This document shows positions 1-16,039 of a stretch of DNA of 30,402 nt, one piece after another. Position numbers and translations under genes: made by a program. The notes below the pieces were generated by a model. The model made no database searches. It was not told the DNA's origin and saw only the letters and a list, made by a program, of their open reading frames with translations. Origin of the DNA: Rhodospirillales bacterium (GTDB taxonomy: Bacteria > Pseudomonadota > Alphaproteobacteria > Bin95); assembly GCA_038143065.1 (NCBI GenBank), contig JAYQLI010000036.1, positions 1-30,402 on the forward strand, written 5' to 3'. Every line of letters begins with the position of its first letter. The stretch's first letter is position 1.

Positions 1-100
1 GAATCCAGCTATAACAATAGCTTAGCAGATCATCACAAATGGTAAACTATTAAAACCTTACCTGCAACCTTGCCTGAACCAAGGTCCAGGACCGGGGACC
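1..100 (+). repeat. Att-arm repeat copy 1 (cut by the window edge, short heptamer tract)
   Basis: 1-84 aligns ungapped with 8425-8508 (7 mismatches in 84, counted by hand); followed by heptamers accaagg/tccagg/accgggg, then diverges near 100. Confidence 0.92.
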
Positions 101-128
101 GCTGCTCTGAGGCAAACGTTTAAATCTA

Positions 129-1568
129 TTATTTCTGGTTCACGAATTCTGCATTAACCCCGGGGGGAGGTGTAGCACCGAATCCGCCTTTTGCGACAAC
201 GGCCTCTATGCCGCCATTTGCGTTTACGATAGCCATCTGATCAGCCTTCGCCATGGCATCTACTGCTTCTGGGTCACATATTGACCGAAGTTCGGTTTCC
301 AATTGTCTGCGTATGCCATCGTGCTTTGGGTTGGCACCAAGATCACACAATTCTTGCGGGTCCTCAGCTAAATTGAATAACTGTGGCTGCATTGATACAT
401 AATAGACCAATTTCCACTGTCCTTTGCGGATCATAAAAGCACCAGTTGCTGATCCCACAGCATGATATTCAGAAAAAACCAATCTCTCAAAATCATCTGC
501 AGCGTTTGCCAAATCGACGAGCGATTTACCTGGCTTTGCCATTGGGTTGATACCTGCGGTTTTTAGTATCGTTGGGTAGACATCAATCAAGGAAACAGGT
601 GTTTTTGAGGTTTTACCCGAGGGAATTCCTGGGCCTTTTACAATGCAGGGTATACCTACTGACTCTTCATAGAAAGTTCGATTTTCCCCATAATTCCCGT
701 TCACCAATGTTATCACCGTGATCGCTGAGGTAAAAAATCTGTGTGTTGTCGGTAAGACCATTGTGTTCAACCGCTCCTAAAATTTTGCCAATCAAATCAT
801 CAATGAACGTGACAAGCCCGTAATAGGATGCCAGCGCAACCCGTGTTCGCTCTAATGTAAAGTTATCCATGATTTGACAATTTCGCATGGCGTAATGCCA
901 AGGATGCTCTGGGGACTCCCGGGGTTTTGTGGGCATCAAACCAAGCTTGTCATAGAGATCGTAGAATTCTTGCGGTGCGATCAACGGAAAGTGCGGTGCT
1001 ACCATGGATACAAACAGCACCCAAGGTTTCTTTTGTTTGCCATTCGTGGCTAACCACTCTATCGCTTCAGTTGCTACCTGACGGTCATAAATATTGTAGT
1101 CAGTCTCCCTGGGCCAATCTTTTCAGCCATAGACAAAGACTTCCAGCGCTTTGGTAAAGGTTCCCTAACGCAGCCCAGCACATCACCAGTCCCGTTGACT
1201 ACATGCATTGGTATTTTTTGAAAATCCAACCCCACGTCGTCATCTGAGTTACGGTAATGTAGTTTGCCGATTGACCCCACTGTGATACCGGCTTTTTGTA
1301 GCTCGTTGCCCCAAGAGTTTGGTGTGCCAAAATAGGGCGTGGCGTTATCCCAATGACGCGAACGGTGCGCATAATCTCCTGTTGCAAAGGAGGCTCTGGC
1401 GGGCACGCAAATAGGCACATTGGTGTATGCGTTTTCAAATAATGTCCCCTTAGCCGCAAGTTGATCGATATGGGGTGTTTTAACCATTTTATTGCCATAA
1501 CAACCAAGAACCTTCCGCGTGTGCTCGTCAGTCATTAATATGAGCTGGTTAACGGGTCTGTCTTGCAT
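129..1568 (-). CDS. Sulfatase (choline-sulfatase-like, formylglycine-dependent), split over three ORFs by probable indel errors
   Basis: DEH..TPHIDQLA..G, CVPAR (CxPxR), GKLH, APHFP, SDHGD..G..WGK, QLFNLAEDPQE across ORFs 1074-1613, 667-1020 and 129-770; ATG at 1568. Confidence 0.9.
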
Positions 1569-1826
1569 TAGTGAGCGTCCTCTTGGGCAGTGAACTTTAG
1601 AAAGGGCAAGCAAAGCTTATCTGTAAGGAAATAAAATTAAAACCTTCTAAGTGAGGGCACCTATATATTTTAGGAAATGTCACAGTTGCGCATTGCTTGC
1701 CGTTCATTATTCAAAAGCCTTCTAGAAATGTTGCTGAAACCCGATACAGATCCTCGCAGAGCTCATGCTTTTCCTGTTCGGGCATTACAAACTTCATCAA
1801 TAAAAAATTTCCAAAGGAGCTGGCCC

Positions 1827-3050
1827 TTACCTTTTGAGCGTACCGTCCAGCGCTGCGATCAACTTGGTCATGTCCGCGGTAGATGTATAATGGACAAATG
1901 ATAGTCTTACTGCGCCTGCGTCTGGGTCAAGACCCATCTGATTAAACAATCTGGCGGCATAATAATGACCTGCACCCGCCATGATGCCCTTGCTTGCCAA
2001 TTTTTTGCCAATGTCAGCGGCTTTCATATGCGGGACCACGAAGCTTATTGTGGCCGCCCGCGCCTCAGGATCAGAAGACCCAATCAAGTGCACATCATTT
2101 CGCGATTCAATATATTCAAGCAACGTCCTGATATGAGGGGTTTCAGCACTTTTGAAAAGGTCAGTTATTCGGCGCGGGCGCTCACTATCGTCTTGACCAC
2201 CATGGTGCGCGTCTAAGGCATCAAAATAATCGATAACACCATTCGCAGCAGCCACCTGAGCATGATCCGGCCCAGCTGGCACCATCCATTTCATTGGATT
2301 ATCATGATTGAAGAAATGAGATTGCGGCGCAAACAATGGTCGTGCAGCATTTCGAATAACCATAACCCCTTGGTGAGGACCATAGGTTTTATAAGTTGAA
2401 AACAGGTAAACATCTGCACCCAGCGCATCCACATCAGGAAAGCCGTGCGGGCAATAGGATACCCCATCAACCAGTAAGAGCCCTCCTGCTTCATGTGTCG
2501 CGTCGGCAATTTGGCGCACTGGATTAATTTCACCAACAAGGTTGGAACAATGAGTGACGGCGACTAAGCGAACTTTATTGTCGAGCAAGGAAAGCAAGTC
2601 AGAAAGCCGCAGCCGCCCATCTGCAGGATCGACAGGCCATATACGAACATCAATGCCATAATCAGCAAGTTTGCGCCAAACTCCACTGTTAGCCTCATGC
2701 TCCTGCGCTGAAACAATGATAGCCTCACCCTCAGCAAGTCTTTCAAGGCACGCCCATGCAAGCACATATGTGTTTTGTGAAGTTGAAGGACCAAAAAGGA
2801 CTTCGTCGGCATCAACATTCAGATAACGAGCAAAACGTATCGGTGCCAGATCCATTTCTTCGCCAGCAATTTTTGAAGCGGCAAAAGCATAATAGGGCTG
2901 CACCTTGCGCTGCTCAAAATAGCGATTGAAACGATCGATCACCTGTTGACACATGTAGGATCCACCAGCGTTCTCAAAGAATGATTGTCCGTTGAGCGAC
3001 GGCGTTGCAAATGCGGGAAATTGGCGGCGAACAAAGTCAAGATCTATCAT
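1827..3050 (-). CDS. Aminotransferase class V / cysteine desulfurase-like PLP enzyme
   Basis: Intact 407 aa; VRRQFP..FENAGGS, EHEAN, HCSNLVG, VDGVS, FSTYKTYGPH (PLP lysine), VRLSFVHYT. Confidence 0.9.
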   Translation of the reverse strand: MIDLDFVRRQFPAFATPSLNGQSFFENAGGSYMCQQVIDRFNRYFEQRKVQPYYAFAASKIAGEEMDLAPIRFARYLNVDADEVLFGPSTSQNTYVLAWACLERLAEGEAIIVSAQEHEANSGVWRKLADYGIDVRIWPVDPADGRLRLSDLLSLLDNKVRLVAVTHCSNLVGEINPVRQIADATHEAGGLLLVDGVSYCPHGFPDVDALGADVYLFSTYKTYGPHQGVMVIRNAARPLFAPQSHFFNHDNPMKWMVPAGPDHAQVAAANGVIDYFDALDAHHGGQDDSERPRRITDLFKSAETPHIRTLLEYIESRNDVHLIGSSDPEARAATISFVVPHMKAADIGKKLASKGIMAGAGHYYAARLFNQMGLDPDAGAVRLSFVHYTSTADMTKLIAALDGTLKR

Positions 3051-3276
3051 GTGAAACCCTCAGGAGTTTAGTTCGTTGGTTTGTACCAGAAACCCTCGAT
3101 ACTAATAATTTGGCAGGATTAGCTCCGACAACAAGCGTAAACTGATAGGGACGGCGGATAACGTTTTAAACATAAACTCTTCCCCCTCGTGGAAATGAAT
3201 ATCTGTCACCTAATAATAAAAACTCAAGTTCTAGCCAAAATATAGTTCTGTATAGCGATGAGCTACCCAATTAGCC

Positions 3277-3374
3277 CCGGACACCTGGACACTCCGTAGG
3301 AGTGTGTCCTGTCCGTCCGGTAGTTCGGCCCCGGACATAATCTTAATTGTCCGGGTTATGTCCGGTCTGTCCGG
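3277..3374. repeat. Cluster of (CC)GGACA/TGTCC(GG) inverted and direct repeats with a central hairpin; replication-origin-like
   Basis: ccggaca 3277, ggacac 3287, perfect stem acactcc-gta-ggagtgt 3289-3305, tgtcc x2, ccggacataa 3331-3340 inverted to ttatgtccgg 3356-3365, tgtccgg 3348 and 3368. Confidence 0.7.
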
Positions 3375-3520
3375 CATCATGGATTTTAAGGGTGTAGATA
3401 TCATGTTTGACCTCGAGAAAAACCTTTTCAACAGGGTTTTTTCGCGCGCGTTCAAAAGCTTTTTGCTTCGCTTCTTGTGTGTCCGCTGTCTATCTCTGGT
3501 AAAAGATCGTCCGCCCACAA
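3343..3520 (-). pseudogene. C-terminal remnant of a RepA/AAA_25-type primase-helicase of integrative elements
   Basis: A frame absent from the ORF track reads RTIFYQR*TADTQEAKQKAFERARKNPVEKVFLEVKHDIYTLKIHDAGQTGHNPDN*, resembling the C-terminus of these helicases; one in-frame stop; runs into the repeat cluster. Confidence 0.5.
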
Positions 3521-4159
3521 TTGAAGAGGCCACGGAACGGTGGTTTCATGACGCAGATCTGGCACTCATGTGTATGGATGATGATGGGCTAGAGCGGCAT
3601 ATAGAAGACAAGCCTATGACTTGTTAGACATTATTTACCCGCTTTAAGAATGATGTAAGAGCTATAATAGACGGCGCTTTTTGTTGGGACACAAACGCTT
3701 CGTAGAAACACTGAGGGAAAAATTAAAACATGACCCAGAATTTGAACTGGTCCGATTGAGTGACGGCAAAGCTGTAAGGCGGCGGATTCTTGTGTAAGAG
3801 TGTAGGAAGCTTTTTATCCTTCATCCTTACCTTACCAATGTTATTAGGTAGGTCTTATTTTTGGGATTTCTTTCGACACTTCTACACTGCGTATGAAAAT
3901 AGACCGCTCTGGCTGGGGGTTGAAATTAACATTCCTGGATCCAGATCCGCGTTTCAAGCGTCTAGGACCACCATCCTCTGGCCAAACTCTGTGAACTGAT
4001 GTTAGCTTTTGTTATTGCTAATATCCATTGGCAGAAGCTGGTGATGCATCAAATGTTCATATTTGGCTGGGTGCCATTAGCCACATATTCTCTGATACTA
4101 CCGTCATTTTGTCCGGCGGTAGCATCAGAGTTTGTTGGTTTGAATTTTAGAGTATTTGT

Positions 4160-5005
4160 TTAGTCAGCATTTAGAACTGTAAATATTCCTGAAAATGGAG
4201 CTGAACCATATTCCTCAGGAATTGCATCATTACCATTATTGCTCATGAACTGAGTACCCTGACCGGTTAAACGAAACTGGAAGTTAAGGCCATAGGTTTG
4301 CGGCGTAATCGCAAATGGAATGGCTAGGTTCATCACCCCAACCACATGTGTTCTAAGTGTACATGGGCCTGCGGTTCCAGCAGCACTTCGCAATTTTGCA
4401 GAGTTAGTGATAAAACCATCAATAGTACCGCCAGTAACTACCGCGCCTAGGTAGCCTGAGAAGCAAGTGGGACCGCCAAAATTATCAAGGGACTCAGTCC
4501 TGTCAGCTGCTGGACCAGTTTGATCGGCACTACCATTTGCTAAGCCATACCAAACGGTGCCGTCTCCTGCAGTAAAAGTGGTCTTTGTAACAAATTGATT
4601 TTCGAACAGAATGTACGGATACCCATAAGTTCCGACTGGCGGTAAGGTACTTTCTCCATCCATTCCAAGCGATGTACCAATCAAGGCCGCAATATCTGTT
4701 GCGGTTGGCGTTGTGTCACTGTAAACAACGGAGCAGGTGGAGGCGTCAAACGCTTCAGCATCCTTACTGGTTCCATAGGGGTGCGCTGTACAAACACCCA
4801 TCTCGACAACTGTAATTTCGTATTTTTGAGGCGTTGCACCGCACGCCCCACTAGCTGGTGTTTGAGAAATAATGCCATTGGTACCGGCAGTTGCAACACA
4901 AGGGTTCATGGTCTCAGCGTCTACCTTTGCTCCTAAGGCAAAAGCATTAGCAGTTAGAAACAAAGAGCTAAGAAGTATAGTGAGTTGTGACAACAGATTT
5001 CTCAT
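4160..5005 (-). CDS. Secreted hypothetical protein (Gly/Thr/Ala-rich, several Cys)
   Basis: Intact ORF; signal peptide MRNLLSQLTILLSSLFLTANAFA; GGAGG RBS; starts 1 nt after the upstream stop. Confidence 0.8.
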   Translation of the reverse strand: MRNLLSQLTILLSSLFLTANAFALGAKVDAETMNPCVATAGTNGIISQTPASGACGATPQKYEITVVEMGVCTAHPYGTSKDAEAFDASTCSVVYSDTTPTATDIAALIGTSLGMDGESTLPPVGTYGYPYILFENQFVTKTTFTAGDGTVWYGLANGSADQTGPAADRTESLDNFGGPTCFSGYLGAVVTGGTIDGFITNSAKLRSAAGTAGPCTLRTHVVGVMNLAIPFAITPQTYGLNFQFRLTGQGTQFMSNNGNDAIPEEYGSAPFSGIFTVLNAD

Positions 5006-5006
5006 A

Positions 5007-6013
5007 TTAAACTCCTCCAATTCCAGCAACGAACTTGGTTTGGATTACAATTGCGTTATTACGCCGAACCTTATCGAGCATTTTTGTCTTTCATCGACGC
5101 GCTCTCAAACATTTCACTTGAGAATAATGGCTTGCTAGACTGGGCGGCCGCAGCCCCCATTGGAATGGTGTAGGTTAATTGGCCAAAATTCTCGTCTTTT
5201 GAAGCCCATCATAGTCTCTGCGACCAAGCTCAACCTGAACACCGTTTATCAACTGTGAAAAGGCAAGGCTGTAGGTATTACCCTTAGTGTCACCAGCGCC
5301 GTCTTCGCCCTTCCATTTCCAATTTTTCACATAAAGCTTTGCAGCGGGCATATAGGGAATTTGTGCGCCAAGCTCGATATCATGCCCGTCCAGTGCCCGT
5401 TCTTGATTGCCGCTCTTGCCTTTTTCCATTTGGTTAGGGCCTTGTAGCTGTTCGCAGTCAATTCGAAGGCCGAGGCTTTCAACTCTGCCCCAAGGCTGAC
5501 CCGCTGATGCCCATACTTTGGATCATAATCAAGAAATGCGTTGAAACCAGTAAGAACAGTTTCGTCGTCACTGAGGTAACGACGCCCCAAAAGGTTGATT
5601 ACTGCTCTTGAGTTGGCGTTACCAATCGATGACTGCATGAAAGTCTGCGCCTGACCATCATCACTAGGCTCAAAGCCTTTTACGTTTGTGATAAAGTAGC
5701 GTGTCTTTTTGCTTTTGATGCCAGTGATGCTGATGTCAGTTTTGGAGTAGGCCATGGAACTGTCTATAGCAGCAGCAGTTGACATGGCAGCTTTATCAAC
5801 GCTTTTCTTCACAACACCGTCAACCAAAGCCTGCTCTGGATTGGCACTGCCTGCCGCATCAGATGCCATCTTGGCAGCGGTTTCCTGACGTTGACCCGCG
5901 CTATCATCCGGGCCGAAAACAAAATCGACCGTGTTATTCCACCCACTGCTGATCGAAGAACAGCCAGTGAGGGACAGCAAAAGCACACTGCCTGCGAGTT
6001 GGGACTTTTTCAT
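5007..6013 (-). CDS. Inverse autotransporter (intimin/invasin-type) beta-barrel protein with a lipoprotein signal and no passenger
   Basis: Lipobox LTG-C; IN.G.RYL, GFNAFLDYD..HQRVSLGAEL, LTANSY, ERALDGHDIE.GAQIPYMP; after indel correction ends ..MLDKVRRNNAIVIQTKFVAGIGGV* (stop 5007-5009). Confidence 0.85.
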
Positions 6014-6374
6014 AATTTACGACTCAGCATGTAAATAGCGATCGATATCAAGCGATCAACTTTCATCAGATTAGCAAGTCATAACAAACTATGGATATAT
6101 TAGCTAGCGGCAAAAGCTTTAAAGGCGAACGCGAAGGTGGGTTTGGCATCAATAACATGATAACGCGCGCCAGAAAAATAAACGCCAAAATTGACCTTGC
6201 ACCGATTGCTGGTGGGGCAATTCTTACCATCCATTTGCCTTAATCACTGGTTTATTGCTGGCGGATAATCATTTGAAATGGAGAAAGACGAGGTTTTTTA
6301 CGATTTGGTGGTAGGTCTTTAAAGTCAAAATTTTGTGGCTATCATTTCGCAAATCTGTGCCGTTAATCATCTCT

Positions 6375-6860
6375 ATGAAAGCTCAACTATCTATTCTATG
6401 CCTATTAATGGCAAGTGCAATGGCGCTAATTCAATCGCATGCTGCGGTGGCCGAAAAAGGCCTTGTCTGCAGCAAAGCAGAGGATCTTTTATCTCAATGG
6501 ACCGTGAGTGATAGGCCATTATTATCTGTGGTTGCACATTGGTTTGATGAAAAAAGGGTCTCAACACTCACTTGGCAACGAAAAAATGACAGCATTGAGA
6601 TGAAGGCAACACGCCGCGGTGTCCCCTATGAAACTGACATGTCGTCAATAAAGTGGACATTGAGCACTAACGGTCAAGAAATCAATATTTCAATAGACCG
6701 CAACACTGGCCAAAGGTCAGTTATGAAAGATGAAATAGCGGTTGTCTCTGTTGATTGTGAATTATTTGACTCTGAAAAGGCGTTTCAGGAGAAATTGAAA
6801 GAATTAACAAACAGCCTTCAGTTAAATTATGACTCAGCGATTGCAAATCACAAATTGTAA
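6375..6860 (+). CDS. Secreted hypothetical protein
   Basis: ATG 6375, signal peptide MKAQLSILCLLMASAMALIQSHAAVA; two Cys in the mature part; IDRNTG motif. Confidence 0.7.
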   Translation: MKAQLSILCLLMASAMALIQSHAAVAEKGLVCSKAEDLLSQWTVSDRPLLSVVAHWFDEKRVSTLTWQRKNDSIEMKATRRGVPYETDMSSIKWTLSTNGQEINISIDRNTGQRSVMKDEIAVVSVDCELFDSEKAFQEKLKELTNSLQLNYDSAIANHKL

Positions 6861-6940
6861 GACCTCTAACATTGTCTGAATTATTTTAGCGACAGAAATC
6901 ACTTACGTCAAAAACAAACAGGTGGTCGATCAATCAAGTA

Positions 6941-7236
6941 AACCGGCCCCTTGAGCCGCAAGCCCCTGAGTCCTGCGCCCACCCCTCTAATCAAGTCCAA
7001 ATCTGATTAAGAAACGGCTCCAGTAACCCCGGTCCGTGGTCCACGGTGCTGGACAAGTTTCTGAAACCCAAACCTTGGCTCATGATGCTCGAAACTTGGT
7101 CCTCGAACCTCGGACCTTGGTTCAGGCAAGGTTGCAGGTAAGGTTTTAATACTTGACCATATTTAACGAAATGCTAAGCTATTGTTATAGCTAGATTCAG
7201 TCACGAATTGGCGCTGTGGATAGGCATCGAACTTCT
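6941..7236 (-). repeat. Att-arm repeat copy 2 (inverted), joined directly to the integrase coding sequence
   Basis: Reverse complement of 7115-7236 matches 8387-8508 ungapped (15 mismatches in 122); ~13-14 heptamers; weaker similarity continues through ttactg to about 6941. Confidence 0.92.
7153..7180 (+). promoter_or_regulatory. Putative sigma70 promoter within the repeat, facing the integrase
   Basis: TTGACC-N16-TAAGCT with an extended -10 TG at 7172-7173. Confidence 0.35.
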
Positions 7237-8300
7237 CAGCATCGCTTCCAAAAAGCGTAAGATTGAAGTATCCCCTGCGCACGAAATCAAACAAAGGCTG
7301 CTAAATCTGCCGCGGCGCTGTCTGATCGGCTCGAGCGATATTGGGATAGTCTCCGGATGGAGATGATCTATTCATTGGGAACTTGGTTTGAGGGTGCAAC
7401 GCCAGACGCTAAGACTTGTTCCAGTGCCAAAGCTTTTCTATAACAGAGGCGCTGGCGCTCTATCATCGTTTGAAGGGTGTTGGAAAGACAAAGCTGTTTT
7501 TCGAGTCCTCAGAACGAAGCATGCGCTACCTGATAGATTGTCTGGGGCATGATGATTTGGCGGTACTTAAAATTTCAGATGCTGGTCGGTTTCGGGATTA
7601 TCTATTCGATCGGGGTATGTCTTCATCATCAGTAAAGCGGGTATTCTCATCTGTGCGAGCAGTGATCAATCTCGCCATTCGAGAACAGGGCCTATCCATC
7701 AATAACGTGTTCAGCGGCACATTCATTCCAGACGATGAAGCCAAGACGCAACGCTTACCCATCCCAACTGATTCGCTACTAACCATTCAGGATGAATGTA
7801 TGCAGTTGGATGATGAACCAAGATGGTTGATTGCCCTTATCAGCGATACTGGTATGCGCTTATCAGAAGCCTGTGGGTTGCTGACATCCGATATATGTTT
7901 GGATGGCGAATTACCGCACATCACCCTTGTTGCGCATCCTTGGCGGCGGTTGAAGACAGGGCCTAGCTCGAGGTCAATTCCACTGGTTGGCGCGTCTTTT
8001 TGGGCAGCAAAGCAAATCGTAAAGCAAGGCCATCAATTTGCCTTCCCTAAATTCTGCAACGAGTCCAAGTGCAATGCTAACTCTGCAAGTGCAGCGCTGA
8101 ACAAATGGCTAAAGCCTCGTGTTCCCAACGGATGTGTTATCCACTCGTTCCGACATAGCTTAAGAGACAGGCTCGGGCTTATCGAATGTCCTGCTGATGT
8201 AATCGACTCCATAGGTGGGTGGACCACCGAGGGCGTTGGGCACCAATATGGTAAAGGTCACAGCTTGCTGGTAATGAACAGATGGATGAAGAAGCTATGA
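7237..8300 (+). CDS. Tyrosine recombinase/integrase with a DUF6538-like N-terminal region; apparently 5'-truncated at the repeat junction
   Basis: DTGMRLSEA (R), RLKT (K), HSFRH (HxxR), GGW, QYG (Y); upstream of the called ORF the indel-corrected reading is QHRFQKRKIEVSLRTKS..AAKSAAALSDRLERYWDSLRME. Confidence 0.92.
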
Positions 8301-8370
8301 ACCTCGGTTCAAGAACCAAGATCCGAGAAAACAGTCACTTGTATCTCGGTCCACGGACCTTGAACTTGGG
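8301..8370 (+). repeat. Degenerate heptamer tract between the integrase stop and the tRNA fragment (second att arm)
   Basis: In-register 7-mers acctcgg ttcaaga accaaga tccgaga [aaacagt cacttgt] atctcgg tccacgg accttga acttggg. Confidence 0.7.
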
Positions 8371-8373
8371 AAG

Positions 8374-8396
8374 TGGCGCGCTCGGAAGAAGTTCGA
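8374..8396 (-). mobile_element. att core: 3'-end fragment of a tRNA-Arg
   Basis: Minus strand TCGAACTTCTTCCGAGCGCGCCA = T-loop-like + T stem + acceptor CGAGCGC + G discriminator + CCA, as in tRNA-Arg; no 5' half of a tRNA; 74 bp from the integrase stop. Confidence 0.7.
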
Positions 8397-8712
8397 TGCT
8401 TACACACAGCGCCATCCAGTGACTGAATCTAGCTATAACAATAGCTTGGCAGATTGTCACATATGGTCAACTATCAAAACCTTACCTGCAACCTTGCCTG
8501 AACCAAGGACTTCGGTTCGAGGCCCAAGGTCCGAGTTTCACGGACCATTGTCCAGCAGCCACGGATCAAGCGCTGGGGTTACTGCAGCACTTTCCTATTT
8601 CAGAATGACTTTGGCCGAGGGGGTGGGGCCTAGATTGGGCTGGGCGTTGCGCTCGGACCTCGGGAGCTTTGATGGGTTGGCAAAGGCAATGAGGTGTAAA
8701 TTCATCCTTAAG
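8387..8712 (+). repeat. Att-arm repeat copy 3 (most complete, ~326 bp)
   Basis: Core-proximal 122 bp shared with copy 2 (84 bp with copy 1), 11 heptamers at 8502-8578, distal ~130 bp shared with 15437-15563. Confidence 0.92.
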
Positions 8713-8818
8713 TAGAGGATAAAGTTGCCGCTGAAATGATCAGGCCATACGCCCCTCTGCCATACCCATAGGTATATATAGTTATATATAAAAAGATAAT
8801 AAGACAGATACGGTTTCG

Positions 8819-10176
8819 TTGATCCGCGAATTGAGTTACGCTATTTTGGCGATTCACCGATTGGATCCGCAATTTGTCGATAATGCGCCTTGTCATGAAA
8901 TCATTGAAGATGGTGCCAGCCTCAGCCAGCCAGGGCATGGGCTTGACGCGCTTCCGATTCCAGTTTCAACCCCCGGATTTGACAGCGCCCCAACATTAAG
9001 CGCCGGCAATGTCATCACCAAAGATCCGGAAACCGGCGTGCAGAATATGGGCACTTACCGCTGCGCCTTGAAAGCACCTGACCGGCTGGTGGTTCGCATG
9101 GCAACACGTGTTGGCGGTGCTGGCGGTTATCAGCATTATCAAAAATGCCAGCAAATGGGCATTACCGAAATGCCGGTTGCGATTGTTCTTGGCTGTCCGC
9201 CCTATGTTGCCTTTATGGGGCCACAAAATTGCCACTTGGCGTTGATGAATTTACAGTTGCTGGCGGTCTTGCTGGCGCGCCCATCAATGTAACAAAACCA
9301 AAGCATTGATCTGGTGGTGCCTGCCGAGGCCGAAATTGTGATTGAAGGCTTTATCGACACAACGCGGGTTGAACCCGAAGGCCCCTTTGGCGAGTCACAT
9401 GGCCATATCGCGCTTGAAGAATATAATATGCCAATGCGCATTACGGCGATAACTCGCCGTCAAAAAGCGATTGTTCCATCTTATATCAGTCAGGTAGCAC
9501 CAAGCGAGTCCAGCGTCATCAAACGCGTCGCCTATGAGCCGTTATTCCTGCGCCATCTTCGTGATGAGAACAATATCAAAGGCGTCAAAAAAGTGTCGCT
9601 TCACGAGCCATTGACCGGCTTGCTTCGGGTGACCGTTATCACTTGTGATGCTAATATGCCCCGAACCGAATATGGGCGCGCTCTACAGCGGCCTTTTTCA
9701 AAGGTGATTGCAGCAAAATCTGTATTGCCGTGAATGAAGATATTGATGTTGATAATGCCGATGCGCTTTTATGGGCAATGTCCTATCGCACCAACCCGTC
9801 CGAAGATATGCAAACCCTGCCTCACCGCGGCCAAGGTCATGGCCCGAAACGCGAACATGATGGCGAAGAAGATTCAAGCGTTCTAATTGACGCCACAATG
9901 AAATCACCAATGCCGCCGCTGGCCTTGCCCGGCAAAGAATATATGGAACGTGCCAGGGATATCTGGGACGAGCTTGGTTTGCCGCAGCTTAATGTTCAAA
10001 TGCCGTGGCATGGCTATTCGCTTGGGGCATGGCATCAGATCTGGGACGATGCTGGACGGCGCGCCGCCGCTGGTGACTATCTGGAAAATGGCCGCATCTC
10101 GGAAGAACAAGCCCATGAAAACCTAAAGCCTGAATCCAAGCTAGACCCCGATACAGGCCTTCCCATGAAAAAATAG
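8819..10176 (+). pseudogene. UbiD-family prFMN-dependent decarboxylase, N-terminus missing
   Basis: APCHE, LDALPIP, ITKDPETGVQNMGTYR, VAIVLG, VPAEAEIVIEG, EGPFGE, NEDID..LLWAM..R.NP, LIDAT over three ORFs; upstream is AT-rich non-coding DNA and the repeat. Confidence 0.8.
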
Positions 10177-10313
10177 CTGCACTTTGGTATCTATTTTCTA
10201 GCTACCAAAACGGCATATCAGCTGGGCTATTGAAAGGAATGGTGGGGCAAAATTTACTCAAGACCCTACCATTAAAAAGTGGGTATAAGGGGGCTCTGGT
10301 AACCCTGTTTTAT

Positions 10314-11351
10314 CTAAACAGTAGCCACAGGTGTGACAGGAGAACCTACCGCGCCAGTAAGCCGTAGCGGAGGTGCCGTAAGAAAAAAGCGGTTCCTCCC
10401 ATTAGCGGACAGCCATTCAGCTAATTCTTCCAAATACCATAGCTCACCCAAAGGCACCCCAAGTCTAAAAAGGCATTTATTGTGGATAGGTAAACGAGGG
10501 CCTTTGTAATCCTCTGGTCGTTGTATACGCGCATCTTCAACGGCAAAATTATCGGCAATAAGCGCAGCTATCTGACTGGTCTCAATCCAATCTAAAAGTT
10601 TTGGATCGTCTCCGTTTAGTACAGCACAGGAGCTATGTAATTTTTCTGCATTTGGTTTTAGTTTCATTCCATAAAGCATAGTCGCCCAGCCTGTATGCAG
10701 AACCAGCATGTCACCCGGCTCAACAACAACACCATCTTGTTTCATTACACGTTCCAAATCGTCAAAGCTGACAGACACACGTTCGTCACCAAAATGCTGA
10801 TGAAGGTCAATTAAAACGCCACGGCCTTGAACACATGTTGCAGCCATATTCTCAATTCCAAGGCGTTCAGCTTTAGCAGATCCACTTTGATCTGAGCCTT
10901 CAACATCTGCAGGGCCTTTAATATGTTTTCCACCTCGCCAGCCGTTGTAATAGACTATCTCTTCAAAGCCATCATCATCTGCGTCAAATAAAGCGCCCGC
11001 GTGTCCAAGGCTGTCCCACTGTGTCGAATACTGTGTGTGTAACAAGACGCTGTCGTCTGACGATACATCCTCAAAACCAGAATGATAATCTCGCCACCTT
11101 AGGTTGTAATAATGGCTATTGTCCGAGTGGAAAGTTGGTTTTAGAACAGGTGGAAAGCGCTTGGGGTTTACGGAATTTCCACCCGGATAATCAAGAGGCA
11201 AGCTCAAGCAAAAGCTAATCCCTGCCTTAACCTCTTTAACCGCCTCAAGCCGTCGTTCAGGGGTCAGCAAATTGATCCGTCCAACTTGATCATCATGTCC
11301 AAAATCACCCCAAGTTGAGCCTTCAGGCCGGTTCTTCCACCTCTTATTCAT
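10314..11351 (-). CDS. Cyclase family (kynurenine formamidase-like) metal-dependent hydrolase
   Basis: Intact 345 aa; WGDFG.DDQVGRINLLTPE, QYSTQWDSLGH, GRGVLID, PGD..LHTGW, ADNFAVE, GELWYL, GAVGSPVTPVA. Confidence 0.9.
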   Translation of the reverse strand: MNKRWKNRPEGSTWGDFGHDDQVGRINLLTPERRLEAVKEVKAGISFCLSLPLDYPGGNSVNPKRFPPVLKPTFHSDNSHYYNLRWRDYHSGFEDVSSDDSVLLHTQYSTQWDSLGHAGALFDADDDGFEEIVYYNGWRGGKHIKGPADVEGSDQSGSAKAERLGIENMAATCVQGRGVLIDLHQHFGDERVSVSFDDLERVMKQDGVVVEPGDMLVLHTGWATMLYGMKLKPNAEKLHSSCAVLNGDDPKLLDWIETSQIAALIADNFAVEDARIQRPEDYKGPRLPIHNKCLFRLGVPLGELWYLEELAEWLSANGRNRFFLTAPPLRLTGAVGSPVTPVATV

Positions 11352-12997
11352 GATTGATTTCCCAATTCAACAGGATACGAAACTGGTGTTGAACCGCCAA
11401 ATGACGGCATGAACGTGGAATGTAAGCTTGCCCCACCCGCGACGCATATCAGAAAGCCATCTGGATTTTTGGTCATTGGCACATCACTATCTTCGGTAAG
11501 AACTCCCAAGTCCCCTAATCTCGGAGTTCTCATCATTTCTTGGTTTTTTGGTGCAAATTCTGAAAATTTTAGCTTTGTCATTTCAAACAGGGATTTTTTA
11601 ACTTCGTGGATACCAATTTTTTCTTTTTCAAAAATTTGAGCATGTTCTGGGCAAAGCACCAGAAGCGGCGAACCGCCAAACATGTAGTCGTTACTGCCCG
11701 CACTTTTGATACTTTTTGCGATCATTTCTATCAATTCTTGGGCTGACGTGGCTTTGATTATCATGTTCGCCGTTCCTGTGACCCCAACTAACGTCACGGC
11801 ATCTTGACTTATGCTGACAGCATTTTCGGTTTGCGACCTCAGCGGTGGCCAATCAACAACACCCTCAAGCTCAGCAAAACAGAAAGTGTACTTACCGGGT
11901 TGGCCAATGGTTGCAGGGTCAACACCACTTTCCGCGCTTGCGCCACCAATATTCCGCATACATAGTTTTAGTGTCCTTCCAAGTGATGCGTTGTTCACAT
12001 TTCCGCCGCCCAACGCTCCAGACTTGTTGTTAAAACCATTTTTGTCAGTCGACGGACCTCCCACAACTATCACTGGTGTGACGGGGTTGGTTGTTGTCTG
12101 TAGGTTAAAAACTTGAAAATGAGGGTCACATAGCGCTCGCATTACGGCGGCCGCATATGGCGCAATATCTGGGGGCATCCCAGTCATAACGGCATTCGCT
12201 GCGATAACATCAGGTGTAGCCAAACCATTCCTAGGCGGAACACGAAGAGGGCTATCATCGAGCTGCGAGGTTGGCCAAAAGTTCAGAATTTCATTTACTC
12301 GTTCTCTTGTCGGAAGAAAAATGGGTAGACCGTCAGAAACACCAAGACCTGACAATAGAGTGGAGCCGCGATAGTCAGCATCAGGCTCGGGGATTCTTGC
12401 CAATTTTTTGCCAACTTTTAAAAACTCCTCGCTGCTCGACAGAAGTTGGTCTTCATCATCACAATTAACCTTTGTTTTACCAGACAACTTGGATTCTAGT
12501 TCAGTAAAGCTCTTCCTTGAAAGCTTCTCTGTTTGCCCAGATGTAAGTGAGGAAAGAGGATGGGGTATTACCATTACTCGAACGCCATCATGACTCTCAG
12601 GCAATGAAATCTCTGCTAGGCCAACAAATGCATCTGTGCAAAGCAATATTGTTGGAACGCCAATATTGGCCAAAGTCGCAGCATCAATTGCGCCTTGCGA
12701 GGCAGCTGTGCCGCCGTCGCAAATTCCTACAATCACCAAATCAGCCATCTCTTTAAATTTCTGGTAACGGGCCGCACCACCGGCGGCCATCGGACCTTCT
12801 TTCATGAGAGTTAAGGTATCAATTGCCCCGGCATTCAAAGACAGTTCAGCCCATTTACTGAAGAAGCCCTCAACGTTCGATTTCCCGTTACCAAAAAAAC
12901 CTATTCGATGTCCCGCAAGCCGGGTTGGCCACGAGATTTTTGCGCCACTCTCTGAGACGACTGCTTTTTCTCCGCGGGGGTCCAAGATTTCAACCAA
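11348..12997 (-). CDS. UGSC-family domain fused to its commonly adjacent uncharacterised partner domain
   Basis: N-term ILDP..LAG.RIG..N.K.N, D.VIVG.CDGGTA, GVPT, IPHPL; C-term DGLP..PT.ERV, IAANAVM.G, GR.L.L..RNIGG, GQPGKY..AE; ATGA overlap with the cyclase. Confidence 0.65.
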   Translation of the reverse strand: MVEILDPRGEKAVVSESGAKISWPTRLAGHRIGFFGNGKSNVEGFFSKWAELSLNAGAIDTLTLMKEGPMAAGGAARYQKFKEMADLVIVGICDGGTAASQGAIDAATLANIGVPTILLCTDAFVGLAEISLPESHDGVRVMVIPHPLSSLTSGQTEKLSRKSFTELESKLSGKTKVNCDDEDQLLSSSEEFLKVGKKLARIPEPDADYRGSTLLSGLGVSDGLPIFLPTRERVNEILNFWPTSQLDDSPLRVPPRNGLATPDVIAANAVMTGMPPDIAPYAAAVMRALCDPHFQVFNLQTTTNPVTPVIVVGGPSTDKNGFNNKSGALGGGNVNNASLGRTLKLCMRNIGGASAESGVDPATIGQPGKYTFCFAELEGVVDWPPLRSQTENAVSISQDAVTLVGVTGTANMIIKATSAQELIEMIAKSIKSAGSNDYMFGGSPLLVLCPEHAQIFEKEKIGIHEVKKSLFEMTKLKFSEFAPKNQEMMRTPRLGDLGVLTEDSDVPMTKNPDGFLICVAGGASLHSTFMPSFGGSTPVSYPVELGNQS

Positions 12998-13156
12998 GCT
13001 TCTTCTCCGTTTGTCTTTTGTCCTTCGTATGTTTGCAAAATAAAAACATCAGAGCAAACTTACATCATGCGGAAAATTGGACGTCACTGAACAAAATTAC
13101 CGAACTTAGGACTTTTCAACTCATCAAAGTTCCGAGGTCCGCGGACAGTGCAACAG

Positions 13157-13630
13157 TTACTTTTGATCACCTAAAAGTTTTTTAGCTAACTTTACTCGGC
13201 TCTCTGGAGGCATTGACGCAATCTTTTTGACTAAAGTAGTTCGAACCAAGTCCAAACGGCGTGACAACCTAGAGTAATCCACTTCTATCAGAGCTAATAC
13301 TGCGTCGGCATCAAAGGGCGTTGCCTGAATAGCTTGGGCCAATTCTGTCGCCGTAGCTTGCCTAGCGCCTTTTTCCAGTCCAACACCTTTGCTTTGAGCC
13401 TCTTGGAACAAACGGCGGGTCTCACGCTGGTCCTCTCGATCCATTGCAAGCAACAGGGACCTAAGACCAGAAAAACGTTCGGGCAAGCCCACCCTTTGGG
13501 GCGAACCCAAATTAACTACCCGCAAATCCTTGTAGCCCTCCAAGCCAAAAAAACTGCCTATTGCGCCTACCACAAATAAGTTCGCAGCAAGTGAGATCCA
13601 CAGTAATAATTTCATTGTTTTTTTTGACAT
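13157..13630 (-). CDS. Periplasmic heavy-metal sensor (Metal_resist, Spy/CpxP-like)
   Basis: LLLWISLAANLFVVGA anchor, A.PFDADA, MPPESR..LA. Confidence 0.8.
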   Translation of the reverse strand: MSKKTMKLLLWISLAANLFVVGAIGSFFGLEGYKDLRVVNLGSPQRVGLPERFSGLRSLLLAMDREDQRETRRLFQEAQSKGVGLEKGARQATATELAQAIQATPFDADAVLALIEVDYSRLSRRLDLVRTTLVKKIASMPPESRVKLAKKLLGDQK

Positions 13631-13639
13631 TATTTTCTC

Positions 13640-14028
13640 CTAGGTGTGTGCCAGATAAAATCCCAGCTCATCACTCAGCCCAACCAAATCACTTAAGCGC
13701 TCCATTTGGGAAAAGGCAGTCGTGATATCCAATACAAATTTGGGAGGGTTGAACCCAACAATATTCCAAAGAACATAGCCGAAACCAAGCCTGCCCTTGG
13801 GAGCCAGCCGCGGGCCTGAGCTAAAACGTTGGCCAATTGATCAAATAACGGTCGTTCCTCAGGTGCGATTGCAATCTGCGGCTTCTTTAGCGCAGCCTCT
13901 ATGGCTTGGTTTTGTAGACGTTCGAGAAACTGCTCGCTCATTTCCAGTGTTGTTTTCTGAGTTTCATCAAATAGAAGGCCCAATTCATGCTCGTTCAATG
14001 GCGGATACTTGAAATCTTTATTAGTCAT
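13640..14028 (-). CDS. Putative single-pass anti-sigma factor (frameshifted 3' end)
   Basis: EL..LF..SEQFLERL, then a GW..AGL..A..FG..LG transmembrane segment; start overlaps the sigma stop. Confidence 0.6.
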
Positions 14029-14579
14029 CTTCCAATCCTAATGTTTTTTTTGTGGGGCTAATGTTCTCGCCAAGGCTTGCTTGCCACGCGACACTAAACT
14101 TTCAACAGCTTCTATGGAAATCCCCATAATCTCAGAAATATCTGGGTTCGGCAGGCCTACAATGTGACGCAAAATGACCGCTCGCTTTTGCCGATCCGGC
14201 AGGGTCTCCAGCGCGTCGCAAGGCCTGCAGCCGCTCCTTGTTTTGTAAATTGCATTCCACATCTGGCGTATCATCTACCACTTCTTGCTGCACATCACCT
14301 GAATTGCGATTTGATTTCCGCAAATGGTCAATGCATAGATTAAACGTCACACGATAGAGCCAAGTGGTGATCTTTGCTTTGTTCGCCTTCCATTTTGGGG
14401 CCGCTTTCCAAAGACGTAAAAGACTCTCTTGGGTCACATCTTCCGCCTCTGCACGGTCATTCAGGATCCGGAGGGCTTGGCTGAAAACGACAGGAGCCAG
14501 ACGTGAATTCAAAGCAATAGCTGCAGCGATCACCATTTGAAAATCTAGCAAGAAGTTCCTCATCCCTGTGGCTTTTCAT
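14021..14579 (-). CDS. ECF RNA polymerase sigma factor (frameshifted)
   Basis: MKSHRDEELLARF..GD, AEAEDVTQE..LRLW, TWLYRV..NLCIDHLR, LPDRQK.AVILRH..GL.N.DI.EIMG.S.EAVESL.SRG. Confidence 0.9.
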
Positions 14580-14785
14580 TGTTTCTAAAAAGTCATCTGT
14601 ACAAGAATTTTCAAACCACCTTCCAATTTCGTCTCAGCCCTTACTTAATCAAATCTACGGCAAAACCAATGTCGTTGTTATCAACACTGGTTGTCTAACG
14701 TGCTGGGCGTTGCAAAGAAATCATATAACCAAAATCACGGCGATTAGGGGCATCGGGGCCAAGGCGGCAATTAAATTACAAATAA

Positions 14786-15301
14786 CTAGCCATTCTTCGA
14801 TGCCATAGGCTCGGACTTTGGTATCTCATCCATAAACATTTCTTGTTCTGTAAAGGCCTTAAGTTCTTTATCAGTTAGGCTCTTTGCTTTTGGCCTTGTC
14901 ATCCTGCTATTCATTGGAAGCGTCAAACTCTTTTGAGAAATCATCCCATCTTTATTTTTATCAAGATATTTAATCATCCGTTGCCCGCCAAGCCTGGCTT
15001 GCATTTCTGCTTGCTCGACAGCGCCGTTTCCATTTGTGTCCAGGCGCTTAAGTAACCAGTTTGACCGTTTTGTCATTGTGAGCATTAACTCATCTCTGCT
15101 CAGGCTACCGTTGCCGTCGATATCAATATTTGCAAACCTTGCTGTGCCATAGGTCTGAATTTCAGCCTTGGTGATCATACCATCACCATTGGTATCCAGA
15201 ACTGAAAACACTGTTCTATCGCCGCGGAGATGCTGTGCAAATGCTGGGAAGAATGTTAGTGCAGCCATGGTAGCTAATGTCAGAATTGCGATCTTGTTCA
15301 T
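14786..15301 (-). CDS. Secreted EF-hand calcium-binding protein
   Basis: Signal peptide; four EF loops DTNGDGMITKAE, DIDGNGSLSRDE, DTNGNGAVEQAE, DKNKDGMIS; true 3' end probably shifted by an indel. Confidence 0.85.
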   Translation of the reverse strand: MNKIAILTLATMAALTFFPAFAQHLRGDRTVFSVLDTNGDGMITKAEIQTYGTARFANIDIDGNGSLSRDELMLTMTKRSNWLLKRLDTNGNGAVEQAEMQARLGGQRMIKYLDKNKDGMISQKSLTLPMNSRMTRPKAKSLTDKELKAFTEQEMFMDEIPKSEPMASKNG

Positions 15302-15436
15302 TTATAAATTCCCTCCAGTTGATCTGTTTGTGGTTGTTCGAGCGCGTAGCAATTTTCCTGCTTGTGTTGATAGAACGCACCAGCTCAAAGACTCCGTCGA
15401 ATAAACTGGAAAATTATTTTAGATCTAACTTGCTGG

Positions 15437-15590
15437 CCTTAATGAAACTGTATCTCATAGCCTCCGCAAACCCATCAAGCTCCAAGGTCCAAGGCGCAAC
15501 GCCCAACCCAATCTAGGCCCCCTTTGGCCAAAGTCATTCTGAAACAGGAAAATGATCCAGTAATTCGGTCCGTGTTCCACGGTCCATGGA
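15437..15590 (-). repeat. Att-arm repeat copy 4 (inverted; distal part plus 3-4 heptamers, core-proximal part absent)
   Basis: Reverse complement of 15437-15563 aligns to 8579-8712 (e.g. tttcagaatgactttggcc, cctagattggg, tgggcgttgcgc); 15557-15590 resembles 7020-7053. Confidence 0.88.
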
Positions 15591-15616
15591 AATGAGTTCA
15601 AGAGCAATTTAAACGT

Positions 15617-15657
15617 GGCAATGAACGCGGCAATGAACGCGGCAATGAACGCGGCAA
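15617..15657 (+). repeat. Perfect 12-bp tandem repeat (GGCAATGAACGC) x3.4
   Basis: Direct reading; a degenerate partial unit (aacgt) precedes it. Confidence 0.95.
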
Positions 15658-15715
15658 AAATTCAGAACACAAAAAAGAAGCCTCAATCCACTTTATTGTA
15701 ATAATGTGTATTTTT

Positions 15716-15773
15716 TGTTGCGGGGGCGCGCAACCGCCGTTACTTGCACCTAAATTTTGCGCCGCTGGTGTAA
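15716..15773 (+). mobile_element. att scar: tRNA-fMet 3' end (minus strand) overlapping the C-terminal codons of a large serine recombinase
   Basis: Minus strand GCCCCCGCAAC matches the initiator tRNA end (GCCCCCGCAACCA); plus frame 15717-15773 reads VAGARNRRYLHLNFAPLV*; dyad gttgcg..cgcaac. Confidence 0.65.
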
Positions 15774-16039
15774 ATCCGGTTGAACTTTCTGTGCCGGCGC
15801 TATACCGGCGTGATCCATGGTAACCGTTATTGTTTTTTTCACAAAAACACAGTATTTCCGCAATATATCGAGACTATCCCATAGTCCCGAGGGTCACTGG
15901 ATCGTTACGGTTATCTGTTATTTGAAGATCTAAACCCTCACGACATTTAGCCCTTCTCCCGCGTGCAACAGATTTGTTAGAAAATATCGACAAAATATCG
16001 CAAGCAACTCTCAATTTGAAACATGAATGAAATAATTAA

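Follow-up and report, generated by a model that had tools for sequence, protein, structure and literature searches.

Several described systems share parts of the arrangement considered here. In elements of the lambda/P4 type, the core of the attachment (att) site is the 3′ end of a tRNA gene, long arms carry short repeated motifs, and attP-like junctions lie between stacked elements; to our knowledge, all att sites in their tandem arrays are direct repeats. The pdif modules of Acinetobacter plasmids are many small modules bounded by 28-bp dif-like sites at which the host XerC/D act, in shufflons the Rci recombinase flips short segments, switching the 3′ end of one gene, and in the yeast 2-micron plasmid the Flp recombinase acts on FRT sites in inverted repeats, with the circle split into two isomerising unique segments. 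Here, we analyze a 30,402-nt stretch of DNA (the window), which is the entire contig C36 (JAYQLI010000036.1) of a 52-contig assembly (GCA_038143065.1), and in which copies of one non-coding repeat alternate in orientation around the remains of a tyrosine integrase gene. We conclude, with a probability of about 0.68, that the window contains two decayed, tandemly stacked units of SAR116-specific, tRNA-targeting integrative islands with an internal inverted attP. G, C and L numbers denote genomes, contigs and loci, respectively; G000 is the source assembly, and the window is G000:C36.

A further likeness, judged by description, is to the tycheposons of Prochlorococcus which, in the part of their account available to us, have a tyrosine recombinase by a tRNA, partial tRNA repeats at their ends and metabolic cargo (10.1101/2020.12.28.424599). 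The same part describes later arrivals stacking in tandem and remnants decaying into islands (10.1101/2020.12.28.424599). As far as that description goes, the SAR116 islands have in common with tycheposons a tRNA-adjacent tyrosine recombinase, partial tRNA flanks, cargo, tandem stacking and decay and, in some members, a primase/helicase. They differ in host, SAR116 belonging to a different phylum, and in an integrase with a DUF6538 N-terminal domain; moreover, their internal inverted att copy and cargo inversion are not mentioned for tycheposons in that part of the account (10.1101/2020.12.28.424599).

The preliminary description of this DNA, made from the sequence alone, reported four copies of one repeat in the order +, -, +, -, and repeat finding, BLAST of the assembly and nhmmer recovered all four at the positions and on the strands given there. 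Multiple alignment demonstrated, however, that only B and C are full copies; A and D are partial, D being half a copy, and a fifth remnant had gone unlisted. The core-proximal identity, put there at 88-92%, measures 82-92%. The copies, described below using the segment names c1, c2, O and c3 and with S_in denoting an inverted, complete attP-like site that follows the integrase gene, and the integrase gene itself are as follows.

1-84/100, plus strand: arm A, 92% identical to arm C over 84 nt (E 5.7e-28); by alignment, an S_in-type inverted attP-like site (1-100) cut by the contig start
6941-7236/7251, minus strand: arm B, 85% identical to arm C over 149 nt (E 1e-42); an attR/junction-type site (6941-7236) reading c3′-O′-c2′-c1′ plus the first bases of a tRNA-Arg core
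7237-8300, plus strand: DUF6538-type tyrosine integrase pseudogene, 5′-truncated and frameshifted
8387-8712 (whole site 8329-8712), plus strand: arm C, the reference copy, a complete inverted attP-like site (S_in)
13100-13147, minus strand: truncated fifth remnant, comprising the last part of c3 and an O-like palindrome, where cargo 2a and 2b meet
15454-15563/15592, minus strand: arm D, 83% identical to arm C over 115 nt (E 4.7e-24); a hybrid (15437-15730) whose O-c3 part (15437-15590) is common to B and C and whose outer part (15591-15730) is of another arm type

An undisturbed layout is present in L043, where an intact tRNA-Arg(ACG) gene is followed by an 80-nt leader and a full-length integrase of 380-382 aa starting MVWVRLPVYFYKRN; G064 also contains an intact tRNA-Arg(ACG), the leader and a full-length integrase, in which Pfam recognizes DUF6538 and Phage_integrase domains. 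Aligned to L043 in the sense of the tRNA, the full window repeat reads c3′-O′-c2′-c1′, then the core, then the integrase leader. The core in the window is 16-17 nt long, CTTCCCGAGCGCGCCA, and equals the 3′ end of tRNA-Arg(ACG), and the arm of about 130 nt carries two tandem 12-mers, CCTTACCTGCAA and CCTTGCCTGAAC, in which c1 terminates. Such tandem 12-mers (CCTTRCCTGMAM) give 6 matches against 0.06 expected, and we infer from sequence that they are arm-type binding sites for the integrase. Segments c2 and O are made of GGTCC-N2-GGACC-like palindromes and differ in length among copies; the pattern GGWCC-RY-GGWCC gives 8 matches against 0.59 expected, every one of them at the arms or the remnant. 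Core, leader and Pfam evidence agree in identifying the repeats as att arms of the adjacent DUF6538 tyrosine integrase, as had been proposed.

In arm C, the left part consists of the inverted integrase leader (8329-8372) and the inverted tRNA-Arg(ACG) 3′ end (about 8373-8400), and the right part of c1 (8401-8508, with the 12-mers at 8480-8503), c2/O (8509-8578) and c3 (8579-8712), with the whole site starting 30 nt past the integrase stop codon. Arm A contains c1 with both 12-mers (56-79) and a short c2/O piece (89-100), without c3, and is cut at position 1 because the window is a whole contig whose start falls inside the arm. About 190 nt are deleted at arm B, which has thereby lost the core beyond its first bases, the whole 80-nt leader and some 30 codons of the integrase. 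Neither ARAGORN nor Rfam found a tRNA gene in the window; only the tRNA-Arg(ACG) 3′ end inside the arms is present. A reading of the tRNA-like piece as the sense-strand end of tRNA-Arg(CCT), with 17/24 matches, was replaced on alignment to L043 by the tRNA-Arg(ACG) 3′ end on the other strand, and with it we dropped the idea of a crossover at O with A and D as reciprocal attL and attR halves. A promoter within the arm was also considered and rejected: the promoter scan of the arms stayed at chance level, with 3 promoter-like matches in c1 against 2.7 expected, and no gene spans an arm.

Arm D contains, in its outer part, four 12-mers in tandem (ATTGCCGCGTTC), a stretch resembling a terminator and 12 nt that match the 3′ end of tRNA-fMet (about 15714-15727); on C39, an rRNA operon ends in an intact tRNA-fMet, and this outer type comes immediately after it. 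It may represent a second island family with its own arm, only O-c3 being common to the two. The outermost 47 nt (15714-15760) combine a hairpin-like GTTGCG...CGCAAC with the tRNA-fMet match, and at least 5 copies on one strand occur over 100 kb in G050 (C1 1170196-1273583), with others in G061 and G090. Segment c3, which is conserved and about 130 nt long (GGTTACTGG...ATCAGATTTGGACTT...GGGGTGGGG), was found in the window (8579-8712, 6941-7047 and 15454-15563), on C39 and C3, and in G064, G050 and G048, with two different outer arm types. Tandem GGTAGACAAA(A/G) motifs occur at about 8560-8676 of G000:C35, in the leader of a distant DUF6538 integrase paralogue after a tRNA-Gly, and are similar to the 12-mers of the C3 copy when these are read as the reverse complement, which hints that tandem leader/arm motifs could be general binding sites for this class of integrase.

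The source assembly is a mixed bin, with three distinct 16S genes (on C35, C39 and C49) that are 83-89% identical to one another. The two copies on the 2.86-Mb main contig, C35, agree with the nominal genus of the bin; the 16S gene in the C39 rRNA operon is only 88-89% identical to these and 97-99% identical to genomes related to a Candidatus Puniceispirillum single-cell genome, and the third lies on C49. Positions 13131-15634 of the window match C39:22567-25082 at 92% identity over about 2.5 kb, with 188 substitutions and 12 indel events; since the differences are mostly substitutions, we rejected sequencing noise as their cause. In the genome collection, the window integrase matched only Puniceispirillum-type records, and a search of the bin's nominal relatives (40 or 25 genomes) with the arms and three window parts gave almost no match and no synteny, as is to be expected if the main chromosome of the bin belongs to another organism. 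Taken together, the C39 16S gene, the shared 2.5 kb, the integrase matches and the missing synteny place the window DNA, on sequence grounds, in SAR116 (Puniceispirillum-like) and not in the organism of the main contig, with C39 likewise SAR116-like. Near-identical words of window positions 6000-15900 were found in 20 runs, belonging to 14 studies in which marine, estuarine and salt-marsh water was sampled.

For the SAR116 survey, relatives of G042 were queried with the integrase-arm sequence, which matched 41 of 61 genomes, and a metagenome scan gave 306 relatives, with 80 retained loci examined; for comparison, every locus was oriented with the integrase on the plus strand. The order of the family is tRNA, leader, integrase, 0.03-1.7 kb of spacing, S_in, 9-13 kb of cargo, and a direct arm with a repeated core (attR). 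We observe this layout in G042:C28 (a single-cell genome), G041:C22 (a metagenome-assembled genome), G064:C1 (a 2.75-Mb single contig), G050:C1, G048:C6 and G061:C11; S_in follows the integrase in all six genome loci examined, and the inverted site comprises arm, core and leader, i.e., a whole attP. Among the matches listed, 14 integrase loci have downstream sequence, and by our own tabulation 12 of these carry S_in no more than 2 kb away. Of the 67 metagenome loci that extend 300 nt or more downstream, 48 have S_in, and of the 30 that extend 2 kb or more, 25 do. The right ends in G064, G050, G048 and G061 repeat the last 14-17 nt of the resident tRNA plus up to 7 nt, as an attR. The sole tRNA-adjacent DUF6538 integrase on C35 served as a single control, and no inverted or direct copy of its core was found within 8.7 kb.

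The preliminary description also took the islands to sit at a tRNA-Arg hotspot, which the survey does not bear out. Resident tRNAs in intact genome islands are Arg(ACG), Gly(TCC) or Asn(GTT), and in 29 metagenome loci with a tRNA at most 200 nt upstream, always on the integrase strand (29/29), eight species are used (Arg-ACG 8, Gly-TCC 8, Gly-GCC 5, Thr-CGT 4, and Asn, Leu-CAG, Arg-CCG and Thr-GGT 1 each); the integrase also adjoins a tRNA in G064, G050, G048, G061, L043 and G042:C78, and the window contains no tRNA gene. Nor are the cargo blocks non-autonomous units, since the repeating unit is the whole island of integrase, inverted attP-like site, cargo and attR. The alternation, on the other hand, is not a peculiarity of the window: it recurs in SAR116 genomes, one of them the 2.75-Mb single contig, and in metagenome contigs, and arms elsewhere are not confined to single direct attR ends. 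The proposed stacking of units in tandem is confirmed as well, with the junction arm(-)-core-leader-integrase present in the window and also in G042:C28, G041:C22 and L142. Many contigs stop at or near att arms, as expected for inverted repeats.

Between the integrase and S_in, three islands contain a convergent gene for a 260-aa S-adenosylmethionine (SAM)-methyltransferase (G042:C28, L072 15037-15819; G041:C22; G050). This gene starts exactly at the end of the inverted integrase leader, which reaches its ribosome-binding site, so that the methyltransferase appears to borrow the integrase 5′ leader. A primase/helicase is the first cargo gene in G064 and G048, and was not found in G050, in the first G061 cargo open reading frame (ORF) scanned, or in any of 17 metagenome loci by tblastn. 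In the G064 array, an unrelated 326-aa tyrosine integrase (L078/L079, C1 1674947-1675927), present also at G000:C37 7071-8051, opens the next island, which begins directly after the attR core of the first and ends in the same c3-c1 arm type; a single arm and a single tRNA core thus seem to serve both integrase families. No relative turned up among viral contigs scanned with the integrase alignment.

There are signs that S_in is kept and is not a fossil. The 30-nt core segment of S_in corresponds to the resident tRNA in three islands, G064 (Arg), G048 (Gly) and G061 (Asn), and in the metagenomes the core matches the resident tRNA in 14 of the 21 loci having both, a match being the inverted last 17 nt of the tRNA with at most 1 mismatch, or 30 nt with at most 3, after the integrase. 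Within one island, S_in and the right arm are 99.7% identical over 291 nt in G064, 98.1% over 213 nt in G061 and 96.9% over 320 nt in G050, whereas c1 plus core averages 84% between genomes (125 pairs). In G064, the likeness of S_in to a distant right arm extends over 615 nt.

Both orientations of one cargo occur in SAR116. The aminotransferase-sulfatase part of cargo 1, the block between arms A and B, is 95-98% identical in three other sequences (L134, L094 and G042:C78). The comparison is of different genomes and samples, not of one clone, with two sequences each way:

Window: Arg core, sulfatase end adjoining S_in
L134: tRNA-Gly island, sulfatase end adjoining S_in, 98%
L094: Arg core, aminotransferase end adjoining S_in, 96%
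G042:C78: tRNA-Gly island, aminotransferase end adjoining S_in, 95% to window 1114-3462, in inverted order

The junction at arm A between c1 and the sulfatase region recurs in L134, as S_in, and in L094, as the attR arm. It comprises c1, the short c2/O piece, ...TGCTCTGAGGCAAACG... and the sulfatase stop codon; the L134 copy is 97.6% identical to the window, and the L094 copy is reverse-complemented and lies beside an Arg core and chromosomal flank. Since L094 also has the c1 variant of the window, these junctions indicate that the whole arm-cargo-arm segment was turned, with c1 travelling alongside the cargo and the exchange on the core side of c1. In the same way, c3 stays on the side of the cargo that carries a 175-aa ORF, at arm B in the window and at S_in in G042:C78, where the stretch directly after S_in-c3 is 77% identical to window 6111-7047. 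A second case is window 11878-13136 (the UGSC region), found inverted after S_in-c3 in L139 at 91% identity, and a third, weaker one is a homologue of orf144 that lies on the S_in side in G064 and, reversed, on the attR side in G050. That cargo between the inverted pair is invertible, as was originally proposed, is supported by the occurrence of both orientations at 95% identity or above in four independent sequences. Short Logan contigs (at least 85% likeness) show joints of 7044/7047 to 15604-15642 and of 7233 versus 8346, and further joints on opposite strands of 8596/8711 versus 15636/15456; all of these fit arms of other loci in other combinations. No circular form was found in viral contigs, and the Logan contigs are too short to show one.

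The cargo genes of the window are, in order:

129-770, 667-1020 and 1074-1613, minus strand: sulfatase split into three ORFs, cargo 1 (Pfam Sulfatase/SGSH_C)
1827-3050, minus strand: class V aminotransferase, cargo 1 (Pfam Aminotran_5, E 1.9e-50)
5327-6013, minus strand: inverse-autotransporter beta-domain ORF, cargo 1
6333-6860, plus strand: 175-aa ORF without known family, adjoining arm B, cargo 1
8819-10176, plus strand: UbiD-like decarboxylase without its 5′ end, in three ORFs, cargo 2a (Pfam)
10314-11351, minus strand: cyclase, cargo 2a (Pfam)
11348-12997, minus strand: UGSC-family protein, cargo 2a (Pfam)
13157-15301, minus strand: Metal_resist-domain protein (heavy-metal resistance family), 111-aa ORF, shortened extracytoplasmic function (ECF) sigma factor and EF-hand protein, cargo 2b (Pfam)

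This array is decayed, as the left edge of cargo 2 cuts the UbiD gene. The longest ORF of the window integrase (7416-8300) encodes 294 aa against 380-382 aa in intact relatives, and through the loss of about 190 nt at arm B the gene is a truncated, frameshifted pseudogene. The window copy has probably lost its activity: about 30 N-terminal codons and the leader are missing from its integrase. The 82-92% likeness of the arms fits an inactive remnant. In contigs of two to four public runs, the same 1-3-nt indels relative to the window occur at 672, 1106, 5081-5590 and 9224-9687, with 130 further sites; those at 672 and 1106 are 1-nt indels inside the broken sulfatase, those at 9224-9687 lie in the UbiD region, and loose ends occur at 8864. 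Since the public contigs carry indels inside the broken genes and diverge from the window upstream of 8864, the breaks are specific to this contig, whether errors or decay.

Contig C37 ends in a 72-aa integrase 3′ fragment and an inverted leader that would lie about 90 nt before the window start, and we infer that it adjoins the window across this gap. On this basis, unit 1 would consist of the C37 fragment and inverted leader, arm A (S_in), cargo 1 and arm B. Unit 2 comprises the truncated integrase, arm C (S_in), cargo 2a and the 48-nt remnant at 13100-13147. This remnant is all that is left of the right arm of unit 2, fused to the sigma-factor/EF-hand module that ends in arm D and that on C39 follows the intact tRNA-fMet at the end of the rRNA operon. 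The two modules do measure about 7.2 kb each, as had been pointed out, but their equal length is a coincidence of this array, since cargo in relatives spans 3-13 kb. Further along the window (24932-25025, minus strand) there is a sub-threshold Rfam match to PYLIS_3, the mttB pyrrolysine insertion element (35.8 bits against a gathering score of 38, E 4.5e-4), amid short overlapping ORFs; C39 contains an intact MTTB-family gene.

Read from the tRNA, a unit of this family begins with a core of 16-24 nt, equal to the 3′ end of the tRNA; an 80-nt leader leads into the tyrosine integrase of DUF6538 type, followed in some members by the convergent SAM-methyltransferase or another gene, and then by S_in, 3-13 kb of cargo and the right arm (attR). 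Since each unit has one inverted and one direct site, the arms of stacked units run +, -, +, -, and each cargo block therefore lies between inverted copies of the same 0.15-0.35-kb arm. The integrase would flip the cargo by recombining the two inverted cores in the chromosome. Alternatively, recombination could take place between the two attP sites of an excised circle, with re-insertion via the site at the integrase start, a route that would explain why the integrase is always beside the tRNA while the cargo faces either way. We had also considered a palindromic overlap (GCGCGC in the Arg core, usable in either orientation); with S_in an inverted full site it is unnecessary, and it fails for Gly, Asn and Thr cores.

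Compared with lambda/P4-type elements, core, arms and junctions are alike, and the SAR116 unit adds a full inverted attP directly after the integrase gene; tRNA adjacency and attR are as in other tRNA islands, whereas the att sites of this family are not all direct repeats. The likeness to pdif modules and shufflons, drawn in the preliminary description, is topological only. Alternating inverted sites bound cargo in both pdif modules and SAR116 islands, but the latter have their own integrase, arm-bearing sites of 250-400 bp, a chromosomal location at tRNAs and one cargo block per unit. As in a shufflon, a tyrosine recombinase lies beside DNA that is bounded by inverted sites and found both ways around, but here the cargo is 3-13 kb of unrelated genes, no gene is seen to be switched, and the sites double as integration sites. 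Features of integrons are absent: the integrase has DUF6538 and Phage_integrase domains, the sites derive from tRNAs, the cargo comprises several genes on both strands, and no attC-like Rfam family is present. Full-text searches of the literature, supplements not being covered, gave no published description of this layout.

Several observations weigh against stacked islands with a maintained inverted attP and an integrase that turns the cargo. S_in was not detected in 5 of the 30 well-covered metagenome loci, and in three of these (L160, L161 and L163) c1 faces the other way, 127 nt past the integrase. The S_in core of G050 is still Arg while both of its ends are Gly; 7 of the 21 metagenome S_in cores mismatch the resident tRNA, although two of these have at most 130 nt downstream, too little to judge; and in G048, S_in and the right arm are only 89.7% identical over 273 nt. 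Inverted cores flank the integrase segment as well, and among loci with a tRNA it was flipped in none (0/29 metagenome and 0/6 genome loci). RecA recombination of inverted repeats of 0.15-0.35 kb would give the same products as inversion catalysed by the integrase. The differences in orientation could in principle reflect independent capture of the same cargo and not flipping, and a local misjoin at a repeat is possible in this contig, which has many indels against public contigs and starts inside an arm.

The loci with reversed c1 belong to a subgroup (L160, L161, L163 and L164) with 67% integrase identity and no tRNA nearby. With c1 reversed and some 127 nt past the integrase, these loci may preserve the ancestral arrangement, in which the integrase would adjoin attR.

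The main rival, which we consider unlikely, accepts S_in as real and conserved, but has the cargo flip by homologous recombination while the integrase only integrates and excises. S_in would then be a promoter/leader for the methyltransferase, a means of antisense control of the integrase, a spare attP, or a tolerated duplication kept alike by gene conversion. Repeats of 150-340 nt at up to 99.7% identity are enough for RecA and are what gene conversion yields, the inverted leader does reach the methyltransferase ribosome-binding site in G042:C28, G041:C22 and G050, and an integrase segment that never flips would be unexpected if the integrase acted freely on inverted cores. Other roles for S_in are, however, hard to reconcile with its retention where no gene intervenes (a 30-nt spacer in G064 and the window, and many metagenome loci at +32) or with a 30-nt core that follows the resident tRNA across five tRNA species, and as a promoter it has only the chance-level matches in c1 to show.

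Exchange in the manner of pdif modules, in which cargo blocks would be independent modules moving among islands or replicons by paired site recombination, is very improbable. The sites do alternate as pdif sites do, and the same aminotransferase-sulfatase cargo (at least 95%) is found both in islands whose core is Arg (window and L094) and in islands whose core is Gly (L134 and G042:C78), but retargeting of whole islands by a change of core explains the same data, intact islands have only one cargo block between S_in and attR, neither arrays of many short modules nor a plasmid context was seen, and the recombinase is island-encoded and has long arm-bearing att sites, where pdif modules use host XerC/D on 28-bp sites.

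A one-off rearrangement or a chimeric assembly at the repeats as the source of the alternation is scarcely credible: although the contig begins inside an arm and its neighbour ends just before one, the bin has three different 16S genes, small indels against public contigs are many and the window arms are only 82-92% alike, the same order is present in a 2.75-Mb single-contig genome, a single-cell genome and several other assemblies, the arm A junction is reproduced in L134 at 97.6%, and X20 contigs cover 10199-14068 and 14044-15684.

Returning to SAR116 islands with an internal inverted attP as the preferred reading, one extension of it is decidedly tentative and, in our estimation, rather improbable: that the inverted attP inside the island works as a second site of recombination, and that the integrase isomerises an excised two-attP circle in the manner of the 2-micron plasmid. 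The predicted circle would resemble that plasmid in combining a tyrosine recombinase with two long, near-identical, site-bearing inverted repeats; it differs in its bacterial host, its integrative lifestyle and the scarcity of replication genes beside S_in, which only two of four genome islands and none of 17 metagenome loci have. If this were so, one or more of three effects could follow: the cargo could be flipped relative to the integrase before re-insertion, theta replication in the members with a primase/helicase could lead to multi-copy amplification, and two sites with different tRNA cores, as in G050 with Gly ends and Arg inside, could give two tRNA targets and cargo swapping with islands at other tRNAs. 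Such islands would be bacterial integrative elements with a programmed, integrase-driven device for cargo inversion and exchange.

SAR116 bacteria are among the most abundant in the surface ocean, and their flexible genes lie largely in tRNA-linked islands. The idea of inversion and stacking with which this DNA was first presented is largely supported, and that of non-autonomous cassettes at a tRNA-Arg hotspot is not; what emerges is a widespread family of islands (306 metagenome relatives, 41 of 61 related genomes, and runs of 14 studies) with a conserved, flipped attachment site. As far as the available part of the tycheposon account allows the comparison, stacking and decaying tRNA-targeting islands with tyrosine recombinases are known, and the internal inverted attP and the resulting invertible cargo would be new. 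The flipped att copy explains the assembly breaks at these islands, the alternating arms in stacked islands, and the recurrence of one cargo at different tRNAs and either way around. Should the inversion be driven by the integrase, a single recombinase would both insert and rearrange multi-gene cargo, providing a simple natural system for doing so, with a bearing on how genes are traded among streamlined marine genomes.

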